A stretch of 45,485 nucleotides of DNA from positions 1 to 45,485 of the IMG/VR virus record IMGVR_UViG_2869970738_000006, one strand, 5' to 3'. How positions within the stretch are numbered: position 1 is the first letter of the stretch; each line of letters starts with the position of its first letter. Under the pieces are notes generated by a model that saw only the letters and a program-made list of their open reading frames with translations, made no database searches and had not been told where the DNA came from. Origin of the DNA: a virus (lineage: Duplodnaviria; Heunggongvirae; Uroviricota; Caudoviricetes). This document shows, piece by piece, positions 664 to 16,058 of the stretch. Both the position numbers and the translations under genes were made by a program.

Positions 664-2412
664 TTTTGCGCTGATTGCCGCCTGCTTCGCGCTCTGCTGC
701 TGTTCAAACCGCGCCGCCTGCTGTGCCAGCTCATTCAGCCGCTTCTGGTGTTCAATCTTGTCTCCCAGCTCAGCCAGCTGGCGTTTGTACTCCAGCGTCT
801 CTTTCTCATGAGCCAGCAGGGATTTTTCCTGCTCAGATAACTGCCGTTTCGTGGCGGCCTCTTTCAGGACCACATACTGATTTTCCGCTTCCCATAAATC
901 CCGGCGCTGCTGGCTGATTTTCTCATTCACACCGCTGTGTTTTTCCAGCGTCCTGAGCTCGGTTTCAAGCGCCAGCATGGCTGCATGCGCCCGGTCTTCC
1001 TGGCGCTCACCGGCAGACACCTTCACACCGGACGGCTTTTTCAGCGTCTATTCATAATCCTTTTTTGCCGACGCCATCAGCGTGTTGCAATCCGCCTGCA
1101 GGATTTTTCCGTCTTTCAGGGCCTTATTCAGCTCTTTCTGACGGGCGGTATATTTATCCAGCGGCGTCTGCAGGCGCTCATACGCCTTCTGCGCCTCTCC
1201 GGTATACTTCAGCTGTGACGCCTCACGCTCAGCCCGGTCCCTTGCCGCCAGTTCACCGGCTTTTTCCATATCCGACTGCAGCGTGGCCGCTGCCAGACCC
1301 AGACGGGCATTTTCCCGGTCATCCCATGCCCCCTGAAGGTTCGCACGAAAAGAGGAGGTCTTTCCCCGGCGCTGGCTCCGGCTCTGGTACCACTGCCATT
1401 TTTTATCCGCCTCATCAAATGCCTTCTGCGCACTGGCGAGCATATCCGCTGAGGATTCAGGACGACCGATATCCAGAATGGCATCCCACATCGATTTGAA
1501 TGCCTTCCCTGTTTTATCCGCCCAGGTCTCCAGTGTTCCCATGTTTTCTTTCAGGCGACGGGTCTGCTCATCAAAGCCTTTCGTGGCGATATCGTTCGCC
1601 GCCTGCAATGCCCCGGCCTCGTCTCCGGAACGCTGCAGCTGTGCAACATACGCAATCTGCTCTGCCGTCACGTTACGGAACTGGCGCGCCATCGCCATCA
1701 GTCCCGACGTCGGGTCAGTGGTCAGCTTCCCGAAGGCTTCAGCGACTTTATCCACCTCCACACCGGATGCAGACGCAAAACGCGCGACACTCTGGTTGAT
1801 GGCATCAAACTGTTCACCACCACGCACACCGGCATTCACCAGGGCTGCCAGTGACTCTTTCGCCTGGTTAAACGTCAGCCCTGCTGCCTGCCCGGCTCTT
1901 GAGAGAGTCAGCATACGATCGGCAGTCAGTCCTGACTGATTACCGGAAAGAACCAGGGTTTTATTAAACGCTGAAAGCGTGGAATCTCCCTGGTACCAGG
2001 CGTACACCAGCGCACCTGTCGCCACCGCCAGCGAGGTGACCCCGACCATCGGCAGGGTGATCGCACCGGCAAGCCCCCTGAACATGGGGATCATCCCGCC
2101 GAAGGAGTCCTTCACCTGACCGCCCTGTTGCAGCAGGATCAGCCAGGGATTCTGACCACCTGCAAGCTGCGTGGCGATATCCGTAAACTGTGCGGGCAGG
2201 GTTCGCATGGCCGCTTTATACTGCCCGACGGAAATCCCGGCTTTTTGTGCAGCCAGCGCCTGGCGGCTCAGGCCCTGTTCAACAGCACTGGCGGTTTTTC
2301 TGGCGTCGGTATCCAGACCTGAAAAATGACGCCTTACCCGGCTCATCTGCTCATCGAAACGGACAGCATCCAGACTCAGGTCAATAACAAGATCACCAAC
2401 CGGCTGGGACAT
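664..2412 (-). pseudogene. Tail tape measure protein (lambda H-like), copy A: in-frame TAG at 1048-1050 and 3' end cut by the IS3-family element
   Basis: 454-aa N-terminal ORF aligns with lambda H; reading frame continues past the TAG (..KKDYE*TLKKP..) with conserved sequence until the IS junction. Confidence 0.8.
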
Positions 2413-2806
2413 ATCTCACACCTCCCGGAATCCCCGCTGAAGCCATCATTAATGCGGCATCATCCACCATGACATCCGCCACATCCGCAGACGATAAAAT
2501 ATCGCGCCCTCCGTCCCCACCGAACCGGACGCCTCCGGCAAGTCCTGCCGCTTTCTGCATCAGCATTTTGTCCTCATCCGGCCTCTCCACCTGCTCTTCC
2601 TCATGCCGGGGGACAAGCAGACTGAAATCAGAGGGATGCATATCCGGATCGCAAAAAAACAGGCTGAGTACAGCGTACGTCAGCCCGGAAAAATGCATAT
2701 CCAGCTGGGTATCCTGAAAATAATGCGTGCGGTAAAAACGGTGCCAGTCGGCATATTCGGTGGATGTCATCCCGGCAAGCATGGCGCGCCAGTCGAGTCT
2801 CCCCAT
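2393..2806 (-). CDS. Tail assembly chaperone T-frame segment, expressed as G-T fusion by -1 frameshift (copy A)
   Basis: T-like ORF in -1 frame relative to G; open from the slippery site at 2851-2857. Confidence 0.75.
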   Translation of the reverse strand: MGRLDWRAMLAGMTSTEYADWHRFYRTHYFQDTQLDMHFSGLTYAVLSLFFCDPDMHPSDFSLLVPRHEEEQVERPDEDKMLMQKAAGLAGGVRFGGDGGRDILSSADVADVMVDDAALMMASAGIPGGVRYVPAGW

Positions 2807-2832
2807 CTCACGCGCCAGTCTGAGGGCAAAGT

Positions 2833-3264
2833 TCAGCTCGCCGTCGAAGACTTTCCCGCAGAAAAATCATCATCAGTCAGCGTGTTATTTTTCGCCACTT
2901 CAGTAATATCAGTATCCGGACGAACAGCTTCGATCATCCCGGACAGGCACAACACCACGTCTTCCGCCCGGGCAATGGCATCGGCAGGCCAGGTGGTGAG
3001 CACTTCCTGCTCTATCTTCATCACGGCCTCATTCATTGACGGTGACTGCGTTTTCTGTGGATGGTTATGCCACAGGGACATCGCCACCAGAAACGCGCCG
3101 GTTCTGACGAGATCTTCCACGCTTACCTGCAGGTTGCCGCAGGATTCTGCCTGTTCTGCACGCCGTTTCAGGAGGGCAAGATGCTCGATACGCTGCAGCG
3201 CAGACAATTCGGAAAGCGTGACAGACACACCGTTATATTCAAATTGTTCTGTTTTCAGAAACAT
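2833..3264 (-). CDS. Tail assembly chaperone G (copy A)
   Basis: 143-aa ORF starting MFLKTEQFEYNGV, lambda G-like, ending ..SAGKSSTAS just after the slippery heptamer. Confidence 0.85.
   Translation of the reverse strand: MFLKTEQFEYNGVSVTLSELSALQRIEHLALLKRRAEQAESCGNLQVSVEDLVRTGAFLVAMSLWHNHPQKTQSPSMNEAVMKIEQEVLTTWPADAIARAEDVVLCLSGMIEAVRPDTDITEVAKNNTLTDDDFSAGKSSTAS
2851..2857 (-). other. Programmed -1 ribosomal frameshift heptamer G GGA AAG (G to GT)
   Basis: Minus-strand GGGAAAG in X XXY YYZ register within the last codons of G; T frame open downstream. Confidence 0.7.
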
Positions 3265-3277
3265 GTATTACCTCCGT

Positions 3278-13995: not shown

Positions 13996-14084
13996 ATTAA
14001 ACCTAAAAAGAAAATCGTCAAAATTAGAGATTCCGGTTTGACACGGAAAGTCATATCAGCGTCAACGGAGCACCGTATTGACGC

Positions 14085-15677
14085 TTATTTATTGGTGAGT
14101 GCTACGTTCCATGGCAGGAGTTCGTCAACACGGTTGGAAGGCCATTCCGGCAGTACGCTCAGGATATAGCGCAGATACGCTTCCGGATCGATACCGTTCA
14201 GTCGGCAGGTGCCGATCAGCCCGTACAGTAGCGCACCACGCTCTCCACCGTGATCGCTGCCGAAGAACATAAAGTTTTTCTTTCCGAGACAGACTGCACG
14301 AAGCGCTCTTTCCGCGGCATTATTATCCGCCTCAGCCAGACCATCATCACTGAAGTTGCACAACGCAACCCAGTGCTTCCTGATATACCGGAACGCATCT
14401 CTCAGACGGCATTTTTTCGATAACGTGTGTTCTTTCTCCTGCATCAGCTTATACAGGGAAGTCAGTAGCGGTTTACTCTGCATTTGCCTGACCGCCAGGC
14501 GTTCAGACACCGGCAACCCGCGTATTTCGTGCTCGATGGCGTACAGCTCACCGATTAGTTTCAGGGCTTCTTCCGCTGTCGCGCTTTTGGTACTGATATA
14601 TACATCGTGGACTTTGCGCCGCGCATGAGCCCAGCATCCTGCTTCCGTCAACGCGCCGCCTTCTCGTTCGGCACTGAACAGCCGATCGTAACCATTAAAC
14701 GCATCTGCCTGCAGGATACCCCGGAAGGGACTAAGGTGCTGCTCCGGATGTTTACCCTGATGGTCCGGTGAGTAGGCGAACCAGACCGCCGGAGGCTCTG
14801 GCGAACCGGCATTCCTGTCATCCCGGACATACGTCCAGATATATCCTGTTTTCGCCTTCTTCCTGCCCGGTGCCAGCACTTTTACTGGTGTGTCATCAGT
14901 GTGAACTTTGCGGCTGTTCATCACATAACGGTACAGAGCATCATTCAGCGGCGTCATTAACTGGCAGCACGCGTCAACCCAGTTGGAGAGTAATGCACGG
15001 CTCAGTTCGACACCCTGACGGGCAAAAATTTCACTCTGACGATACAGTGGCAGGTGTTCGCAGTATTTTCCCGTTAACACGCGGGCAAGTAACCCCGGGC
15101 CCGCGATACCACGCTCTATCGGACGGGATGGTGCCGGTGCTTCAACGATGCAGTCACATTTTGTACAGGCTTTTTTTACCCGTTCTGTGCGGATCACTTT
15201 CAGAGCGCTGCTCACCAGTTCCAGTTGTTCTGCGCTGACTTCCCCCAGATAATCCAGCTCACCGCCACACTCCGGGCAACAGCTTTCTTCTGGCTCCAGG
15301 CGATTTATTTCGCGGGGCAGATGCTCCGGTAACGGGCGACGATGACGAGACTGTCGCAACTGGCGGGGAACCTGCGGATCGTCTTCCCGCCCACTGTAAC
15401 GATCACTGTCCTGTTCGCGTTGTTTCAGCAGGGCCTCAGCCTGTTCAACTTCACGACGCAGTTTTTCAGAACGGGTACCGAACAGCATCCGGCGCAGTTT
15501 TTCTATCTGAGCCCGCAGATGTTCTATTTCCCGTTCATCTTCTTCGATCTTTTCTTCGGCGCGGGCCAGTGCAGAGCGCAGGAAGGCCTCCGTCTCTTCA
15601 ACCAGACTCAGTTGCTGGTCTTTCTGACGGAGCTGGCATTCCAGTTCTGCAATGCGAATGAGGTATTTTTGATTCAT
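14085..15677 (-). CDS. IS66-family transposase TnpC
   Basis: 530-aa ORF with N-terminal coiled coil, CxxC zinc-finger pair and IS66 catalytic core. Confidence 0.9.
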   Translation of the reverse strand: MNQKYLIRIAELECQLRQKDQQLSLVEETEAFLRSALARAEEKIEEDEREIEHLRAQIEKLRRMLFGTRSEKLRREVEQAEALLKQREQDSDRYSGREDDPQVPRQLRQSRHRRPLPEHLPREINRLEPEESCCPECGGELDYLGEVSAEQLELVSSALKVIRTERVKKACTKCDCIVEAPAPSRPIERGIAGPGLLARVLTGKYCEHLPLYRQSEIFARQGVELSRALLSNWVDACCQLMTPLNDALYRYVMNSRKVHTDDTPVKVLAPGRKKAKTGYIWTYVRDDRNAGSPEPPAVWFAYSPDHQGKHPEQHLSPFRGILQADAFNGYDRLFSAEREGGALTEAGCWAHARRKVHDVYISTKSATAEEALKLIGELYAIEHEIRGLPVSERLAVRQMQSKPLLTSLYKLMQEKEHTLSKKCRLRDAFRYIRKHWVALCNFSDDGLAEADNNAAERALRAVCLGKKNFMFFGSDHGGERGALLYGLIGTCRLNGIDPEAYLRYILSVLPEWPSNRVDELLPWNVALTNK

Positions 15678-15707
15678 GGCCGTTTTTATAATCCGGCCAT
15701 GACATTT

Positions 15708-16058
15708 TTACAACATTGTCAGTGCGTTAAGGCGGGATGTTTTTGGCTGACGCCAGTCCAGCTTATCGAGGAGCATTGCCAGTTGCTAGCGGGTAATGGA
15801 TACCTTGCCGTCACGCACAGCAGGCCAGATAAACTGGCCTTCCTCCAGGCGTCTGGTGAACAGGCACAGACCATCAGCATCAGCCCACAGGATTTTAATC
15901 ATGTCACCCCGTCGGCCACGGAAGATGAACAGGTGACCGGAGAAGGGATTATCATTCAGCACATGCTGTACCTGTTCACCCAGCCCGTTGAAAGACTTAC
16001 GCATATCGGTTATCCCAGCAACGAGCCAGATGCGGGTGCCTGACGGGAGTGAGATCAT
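15708..16058 (-). pseudogene. IS66-family TnpB with in-frame TAG at 15786-15788
   Basis: Frame reads ..KVSITR*QLAMLLDKLDWRQPKTS.. with a conserved-looking tail after the stop. Confidence 0.75.

Follow-up and report, generated by a model that had tools for sequence, protein, structure and literature searches.

The stretch of DNA analysed here (hereafter the window: positions 1–45,485 of IMG/VR virus record IMGVR_UViG_2869970738_000006, 45,485 nucleotides (nt) in all) carries an in-frame amber (TAG) codon in each of two mobile-element genes, namely the lambda-like tail tape measure gene H of a lambdoid prophage remnant, referred to as prophage A, and tnpB of an IS66-family insertion sequence (IS). 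Both codons are very probably ordinary nonsense mutations in decaying mobile elements of Shigella boydii, with neither suppression nor recoding at work and with the tnpB allele having spread through TnpB supplied in trans. An earlier sequence-only reading had reported these two codons, together with conserved-looking sequence after each stop, and on this it was right: the codons lie at 1048–1050 and 15786–15788, the peptides that it quoted are reproduced, and the intact relatives of each gene (the tape measure gene of Escherichia coli MS 196-1 and the intact IS66 copies) have TCG at the same place. Its proposal that they are nonsense mutations stands as well, both being derived single-base changes from TCG that are confined to an S. 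boydii lineage. The features concerned are the following:

663–2412, minus strand: remnant of gene H (lambda-like tail tape measure, prophage A), codons 1–583 of about 857
1048–1050, minus strand: in-frame TAG at tape-measure codon 455, from TCG (Ser)
14058–16560, minus strand: IS66-family IS, 2506 base pairs (bp) with its displaced TAC, gene order tnpA, tnpB, tnpC
16055–16474, minus strand: tnpA, 139 amino acids, Pfam HTH_Tnp_1, its stop overlapping the tnpB start (ATGA)
15708–16058, minus strand: tnpB (IS66 Orf2), 116 amino acids if read through, here 90
15786–15788, minus strand: in-frame TAG at tnpB codon 91, from TCG (Ser); IS position 774, C to A
14085–15677, minus strand: tnpC, DDE transposase, 530 amino acids, intact

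The element that carries the tnpB mutation has the organization of the IS66 family (IS66, IS679 and the ISEc8/ISEc23/ISEc43-type elements): tnpA with its HTH domain, tnpB (Orf2) and tnpC with its DDE_Tnp_IS66 domain follow each other in that order, the tnpA stop overlaps the tnpB start, the inverted repeats begin with GTAAGCG (start, GTAAGCGT; repeats, GTAAGCGTAAAC.. and GTAAGCGTCAAC..), and copies are flanked by the 8-bp target duplication that is a hallmark of IS66 insertion (PMC6778807). It differs in that the Shigella variant shows about 93% DNA identity to copies annotated as ISEc43 family and in that the S. boydii lineage carries the allele turning Ser91 of TnpB into an amber codon. TnpC matches the Pfam families LZ_Tnp_IS66, zf-IS66, DDE_Tnp_IS66 and DDE_Tnp_IS66_C, and the identical protein was found in 302 blocks of the sequence collection. 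The plus strand reads CTA at 15786–15788, that is, TAG on the minus, coding strand, so that translation runs GKVSITR-stop-QLAMLLDKLDWRQPK (over the whole tail, DGKVSITR-stop-QLAMLLDKLDWRQPKTSRLNALTML-stop), with the stop at codon 91, where intact IS66 copies have TCG.

The exact 90-residue TnpB occurs in 58 blocks of the collection, in many genomic contexts within Shigella assemblies. An alignment of 27 IS66 copies with that of the window gave identities of 99.9% or more throughout, and a single site, IS position 774 (A or C), always separated TAG from TCG copies. Perfect 8-bp target duplications surround TAG copies at seven sites (AAATTAAC, TGAGATTC, TGATTTAG, GTATTTTG, AAAAAGAG, GAAATAAC and ACGTAACA) and also five TCG copies. 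Among plasmids, the TAG is present in 6 of 1557 matching records, all of them S. boydii virulence plasmids, including pBS512_211 (NC_010660.1, strain CDC 3083-94); in these six plasmids the TAG copy sits at one locus, beside a GNAT/DUF1778 toxin–antitoxin pair. No TAG was found among the 3599 matching E. coli records. Thus, the tnpB TAG is a real mutation rather than an error, and its confinement, among plasmids, to those of S. boydii and its absence from the E. coli records make it a one-base marker of an IS66 sub-lineage that has expanded within one S. boydii clade. Because the allele is carried by many IS copies at different loci, it need not have arisen in the window copy. Note that the TCG copies on the plasmids of other S. 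boydii, which we considered as orthologous-site evidence, occupy another locus, close to ccdAB and ipaH9.8, and are uninformative as to a change in place.

The tape measure mutation has a similar form. The plus strand reads CTA at 1048–1050, giving MASAKKDYE-stop-TLKKPSGVKV on the minus, coding strand (extended, MASAKKDYE-stop-TLKKPSGVKVSAGERQ), with the stop at codon 455. The gene H remnant, the product of which matches Pfam TMP_2 (PF06791), shares 98.7% identity with the intact gene (2574 nt) of MS 196-1, the closest E. coli prophage, and relative to that gene the TCG-to-TAG change at codon 455 is the sole in-frame stop. An identical 454-residue product is encoded by the chromosomes CP026866.1, CP026762.1 and CP026795.1, the draft LPTT01 and four Logan sequencing-run assemblies, and no TAG-bearing version of the 61-mer turned up among the 509 E. 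coli records (568 places) in which the 61 bases around the codon are matched. The TAG is therefore a real mutation, not an error, and, being common to several S. boydii strains, it predates their divergence. The sequence-only reading had called the two mutations recent and independent. The first term does not suit the tape measure TAG, shared as it is by three complete chromosomes at least, besides a draft and four run assemblies; as for the second, nothing physically links the two codons (the interval 1048–15788 given for them only brackets them), but in tnpB the TAG belongs to an allele that copies of a multi-copy IS have inherited. The tape measure nonsense mutation is thus an old one, fixed in an ancestor of several S. 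boydii strains.

While the TAG removes residues 455 to about 857 of the tape measure, IS911 truncates the gene as well: homology to the intact gene ends at 663 (codon 583 of about 857), window positions 1–662 are 99.85–100% identical to elements annotated as IS911 family on S. boydii plasmids, and the IS911/tape measure junction is common to other S. boydii chromosomes. Read-through of the TAG could not restore the tape measure, since IS911 removes its last third. Prophage A is dead in any case, having lost that last third to IS911 and having its small terminase gene cut by the IS66/IS110 insertion:

12402–12534, minus strand: terS/Nu1 (small terminase) remnant, amounting to 26% of the gene by projection onto locus L001, cut by the IS66/IS110 insertion

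The window belongs to an S. boydii chromosome of the CDC 3083-94/ATCC BAA-1247 type, packed with ISs and prophage remnants and undergoing reductive decay. Indeed, CP026795.1, the chromosome of S. boydii ATCC BAA-1247, is 100% identical to the first 5412 bases of the window; the loci of the tape measure and of gene I (see below) both map to it, 30.4 kb apart, with the spacing of the window; and the adjoining accession, CP026796.1, is a plasmid of S. boydii ATCC BAA-1247, a strain that we take to be the same as CDC 3083-94. By comparison, there was no exact match to the window among 5426 complete E. coli genomes, the best showing 98.7% identity over the prophage. The phenomenon itself, mobile elements decaying in Shigella, is well known. 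The Shigella reference genomes contain at least 199 pseudogenes each, amounting to at least 5% of coding sequences, and in this host-restricted E. coli lineage genes are inactivated by nonsense mutations, by the insertion of ISs and by rearrangements that ISs mediate (Hawkey et al. 2020, PMC7373316); lesions of each of the three kinds are present in the window, where they are likewise fixed in a clade. Unlike in the general case, the genes hit here belong to mobile elements (prophage and IS) rather than to host metabolism or virulence, and no adaptive loss of function is implied. The two mutations carry little weight beyond annotation, and public annotations already omit these genes as pseudogenes.

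How, then, did a defective tnpB come to be present at so many sites? The TAG probably arose once, by the C-to-A change at position 774 in one IS66-family copy, which, like its descendants, would have kept intact ends, tnpA and tnpC. TAG copies would then have multiplied to many sites with TnpB supplied in trans, either by sister copies differing only at position 774 or by a paralogous IS66-family element. Candidate donors are at hand. Intact tnpB sister copies are present in at least two TAG-carrying strains. More specifically, (i) CP026866.1 holds TAG copies (L014 and L015) together with a TCG copy in the terS gene of prophage A, which is identical to the window copy over 2503 aligned bases except for C at position 774 and encodes the full 116-residue TnpB; (ii) plasmid p600657_208 holds a TAG copy and a truncated copy (IS positions 1–1348) with intact tnpA and tnpB; and (iii) a sister assembly of the window's strain encodes a paralogous IS66-family TnpB of 115 residues, intact, 66% identical and endowed with the QLAMLL..DWRQPK motif, in an element whose own tnpC is broken. 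Mobilization by TnpB in trans is the likeliest route of spread, trans supply and transposition after the mutation being what we infer; the substitutions, their restriction to the lineage, the target duplications at multiple sites and the coexistence of intact sister copies are directly observed. The situation is reminiscent of non-autonomous elements mobilized in trans, such as the miniature inverted-repeat (MITE)-like IS derivatives, which have functional ends, lack a protein and multiply beside autonomous relatives; it differs in that the defect is here a single base in an accessory gene of a full-length element with its own tnpC, and in that supply in trans would be deduced from the coexisting copies. 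The tnpB amber allele thus amounts to a natural experiment on whether the IS66 TnpB can act in trans: a sub-lineage with a truncated TnpB at many sites points to TnpB acting in trans or, less likely, to its being dispensable.

The part of TnpB that the TAG removes seems to matter. The intact protein covers positions 2–100 of the 101 positions of the Pfam TnpB_IS66 profile and the truncated one positions 2–83, so that positions 84–100 are lost. The usual length of TnpB homologues is 116 residues, with few exceptions between 99% and about 73% identity, and they share a conserved C-terminal TRSQLAMLLDKLDWRQPK, which the truncated protein loses with its last 26 residues. TRSQLAMLLDKLDWRQPK, beginning near the mutated serine, is the best-conserved stretch of TnpB, nearly invariant and still recognizable at 52% identity. 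Gomez et al. 2014 (PMC3971601) described motifs that bind the beta sliding clamp (consensus Q-L-S-L-F/L) in the TnpB of certain IS66 elements, and the QLAML/QLTLL sequence directly following the TAG resembles this consensus, which makes it a candidate clamp-binding motif, to be taken as a lead only. No relative of IS66 TnpB was found in the Protein Data Bank (PDB). The mutation may also act on its neighbour: IS66 proteins are reportedly made by translational coupling (PMC3469429), and as 108 nt separate the premature stop from the tnpC start downstream, versus 30 nt for the natural stop, translation of tnpC in cis may be lowered.

Several points temper the account of nonsense mutation followed by mobilization in trans. 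It relies on IS66-family transposition needing TnpB, a requirement that has been reported for IS679, where tnpA, tnpB and tnpC are each said to be required. The virulence plasmid of the window's strain carries a TAG copy only. All three nonsense changes found in the window (the third is described below) are TAG, which is compatible with chance (p ~0.08–0.29) yet constitutes no argument against a suppressor. Finally, gene conversion among near-identical copies could have spread the TAG after insertion, and the data do not separate the two routes.

We regard as unlikely, however, that the TAG arose in one copy and reached already inserted sisters by gene conversion, in which case no TAG copy need have transposed. 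The copies, 99.9–100% identical, are certainly ideal substrates for conversion, and IS66 copies clearly recombine, no matching target duplications being left around the window copy, around L014 or around the copies on the plasmids; moreover, the terS insertion has TAG in the window and TCG in CP026866.1. Yet at least seven sites flanked by target duplications carry the TAG, and converting so many to one neutral or deleterious variant is less parsimonious than copying from a TAG master, while the terS case is equally explained by reciprocal recombination between copies, which is visible there.

It also seems quite unlikely that TnpB, or its QLxxLL..DWRQPK tail with the candidate beta-clamp-binding motif, is dispensable in cis, or that read-through of the CGC-UAG-C sequence at a low level supplies enough protein; if it were so, the spread of a tnpB-null allele and the ATG-to-ATA allele described hereafter would fit a general tolerance of, or even selection for, tnpB loss. 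Decidedly unlikely, in our opinion, is the related idea that the TAG copies are autonomous, either because the 90-residue TnpB is still functional or because this element does without TnpB. In its favour, the TAG lineage has expanded, a second, presumably null tnpB allele exists in other Shigella genomes, and the elements of the ISBst12 group of the IS66 family, which consist of a single open reading frame (ORF) and have neither tnpA nor tnpB, nevertheless transpose (PMC12898284). The second allele is an ATG-to-ATA change of the tnpB start at IS66 position 505, which keeps the overlapping tnpA stop; it was seen at three loci (L029, L031 and L032, in UYIT01000003.1 and CP026807.1), with intact copies in the same chromosome and matching target duplications at none of the three. 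On the other side, the almost invariant length of the homologues, the conservation of the deleted C-terminal motif above any other part of the protein, the reported requirement for tnpA, tnpB and tnpC alike in IS679 and the coexistence of intact donors with TAG copies all speak against autonomy.

The remaining explanations bear as well on a third in-frame stop, which the sequence-only reading had overlooked:

31467–31469, minus strand: in-frame TAG at codon 173 of tail-assembly gene I of prophage B, from CAG (Gln)

Here too, conserved sequence continues past the stop (VGSRRIS-stop-DISTRDEGGGGKVVVIGRQG-stop). The orthologous gene I locus has C at this position (CAG) in CP026762.1, CP001063.1, CP026814.1 and four other assemblies, and the TAG was found in none of 1705 E. 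coli records. It is thus private to this assembly, where it reflects a mutation that occurred very recently in the stock used for sequencing or else an error of the consensus. We had considered it as support for an all-amber pattern and rejected it as such, same-strain and sister assemblies having CAG. Short contigs that looked like carriers of a 172-residue gene I product were also discarded, as they merely end there.

The sequence-only reading had suggested, as a speculation, that the host may carry an amber suppressor tRNA. We consider it very unlikely that such a tRNA, or a useful read-through of UAG, still provides full-length functional protein from the TAG genes. The idea has some appeal, since all three in-frame stops of the window are TAG and none is TAA or TGA, the TAG-bearing IS66 lineage has multiplied, which read-through of tnpB would also explain, and the tnpB stop is followed by C, said to be a weak termination context in E. 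coli. But TAG is the expected commonest nonsense product: 43–54% of the possible single-base nonsense changes in the genes of the window give TAG (the range depending on the transition bias), so that the chance of obtaining TAG is p ~0.19–0.29 for two out of two and p ~0.08–0.16 for three out of three. An enrichment in TAG over TAA and TGA, which we had entertained, is therefore not significant, and two TAGs are not above chance expectation. The three stops share no common sequence context (GAA TAG ACG, CGC TAG CAA and TCC TAG GAC). Homologues outside one S. boydii lineage have TCG or CAG instead of TAG, and the third TAG is absent even from same-strain assemblies. The rest of the ORF and of the element is intact for tnpB, but not for the tape measure, which read-through cannot rescue, and intact tnpB donors exist, so that read-through is not needed for the spread of the IS. 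An ARAGORN search of the window detected no tRNA gene; the 26 related Shigella loci searched likewise, a small part of the genome, contained only one tRNA, a tRNA-Thr, and none with a CUA anticodon. The reading had also named intact copies elsewhere, together with the absence of a suppressor tRNA, as a point against its proposals; some sister IS copies are indeed intact, whereas the TAG recurs in many others. The amber suppressors known from laboratory strains of E. coli K-12 (supE44/glnV44 and supF/tyrT) would read UAG as sense, but no such tRNA was found in the window or the 26 loci and nothing in the data requires one; likewise, we know of no natural isolates that depend on amber suppressors. 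Altogether, an amber suppressor is unsupported and is not needed to explain the data.

Note that both verified changes are of the same type, TCG to TAG, i.e. C to A on the coding (minus) strand and G to T on the plus strand (1049 and 15787). G-to-T changes are a classic signature of oxidative damage; the shared type may be a coincidence.

That the TAGs are sequencing or assembly errors, as the third TAG (31469), unique to this assembly, and the homopolymer deletions at 9058, 11028 and 36084, missing from same-strain or sister assemblies, could make one suspect, is refuted for the tape measure and tnpB codons by their recurrence in many independent assemblies and retains a practically negligible probability. 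The homopolymer changes of the window are as follows:

9058, minus strand: 1-bp deletion in a C5 run (C5 to C4), splitting the portal gene of prophage A
11028, minus strand: 1-bp deletion in a C6 run (C6 to C5), splitting the large terminase gene (terL)
36084: 1-bp deletion (C8 to C7) in the tape measure gene (H) of prophage B
43019: C5-to-C4 change in the portal gene of prophage B

Both the prophage A portal (530 amino acids) and terL are intact in CP026762.1, a near-identical assembly, as they are in that obtained by Logan from run SRR8186700; for prophage B, the tape measure reaches its full 870 residues in CP026762.1 and in CP001063.1, an earlier assembly of CDC 3083-94. Since the genes are intact in these same-strain or sister assemblies, the deletions at 9058, 11028 and 36084 are most likely homopolymer assembly errors mimicking frameshift pseudogenes. 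For the same reason, we abandoned the picture of a multiply crippled prophage, in which the portal and terL frameshifts would be real lesions. Such errors call for caution when pseudogenes are counted from this record.

Two other irregularities were noticed in prophage B. Its lom gene (Ail/Lom, 26978–27567) is split into ORFs of 93 and 103 amino acids by a net 10-bp deletion near 27260; the same 103 + 93 split is found in the lom gene of a related prophage of CP026762.1, CP026814.1 and UAUR01, and it is probably real. The junction between genes K and I (32041–32120; 31193–32120) differs from the orthologous locus of seven other assemblies by an indel of about 90 bp and four substitutions. The genome also has a third prophage, whose K protein is identical to the one in the window, which points to gene conversion from one prophage to another or to repeats having been confused in the assembly.

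The IS66 copy of the window has a history of its own. It is not flanked by a target duplication, the flanks being ccagatgt and gtttcctg. The flank on the terS side, GTTTCCTG, corresponds to the target duplication of the original IS66 insertion and recurs at the opposite end of the terS copy of CP026866.1 (L048), which implies that the window copy descends from the terS insertion and later recombined with another copy. Recombination between IS66 copies thus joined the terminase region of the prophage (terS) to the yebB/ruvC region. Besides, the right inverted repeat of this copy is split, 3 bp from its tip, by an IS110-family element, the last three nucleotides of the 12535–14057 interval (TAC in the IS66 orientation) being the displaced tip of the IS66 repeat. 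Given this split repeat and the lost target duplication, the window copy is very likely immobile, whatever the state of its tnpB.

The invading element is ISSso6-like, its relatives being annotated as ISSso6, and belongs to the IS110 family: its transposase (12665–13792) matches Pfam DEDD_Tnp_IS110 (PF01548) and Transposase_20 (PF02371), and it inserts site-specifically without target duplication. The element occurs in about 15 of the 28 IS66 copies, at many sites and always at the same position (GTA^AGCGT) and in the same orientation of the IS66 repeat (copies L004, L006–L008, L011, L013–L015, L017, L018, L029, L031, L033 and L034, besides that of the window). One plasmid locus occurs both with and without it, and the L031 copy has it in both repeats, in mirrored arrangement. 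It therefore looks as though the ISSso6-like element targets IS66 ends site-specifically, which would immobilize the IS66 copy. IS4321 and IS5075, members of the IS1111 group of the IS110 family, target the terminal repeats of Tn21-family transposons; the present case resembles theirs, an IS110-family element having entered the terminal inverted repeat of a different transposable element at a fixed position and in a fixed orientation, but here an ISSso6-like element is the invader and the IS66 repeat (GTA^AGCGT) its target. Recombination by IS110 elements is guided by a bridge RNA (PMC11208160).

The general layout of the window is the following:

1–662, strand not assigned: end of an IS911 (IS3-family) element, with an orfB-type ORF at 1–654 on the plus strand
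663–12534: late genes of lambdoid prophage A
12535–14057, plus strand: IS110-family element
14058–16560, minus strand: IS66-family element
16680–21014: host genes, i.e. a yebB fragment, ruvC, yebC, nudB, aspS and the start of yecD
22862–23628: IS1
about 25–43.5 kb: lambdoid prophage B, then further IS sequence

In the part that follows the IS66 element, yecD is interrupted by a 1.45-kb IS with an ORF of 398 amino acids (21015–22465), next to which lies the IS1 copy. Finally, the 117-bp stretch adjoining the left end of the IS66 element (16562–16678) recurs at 23512–23628.

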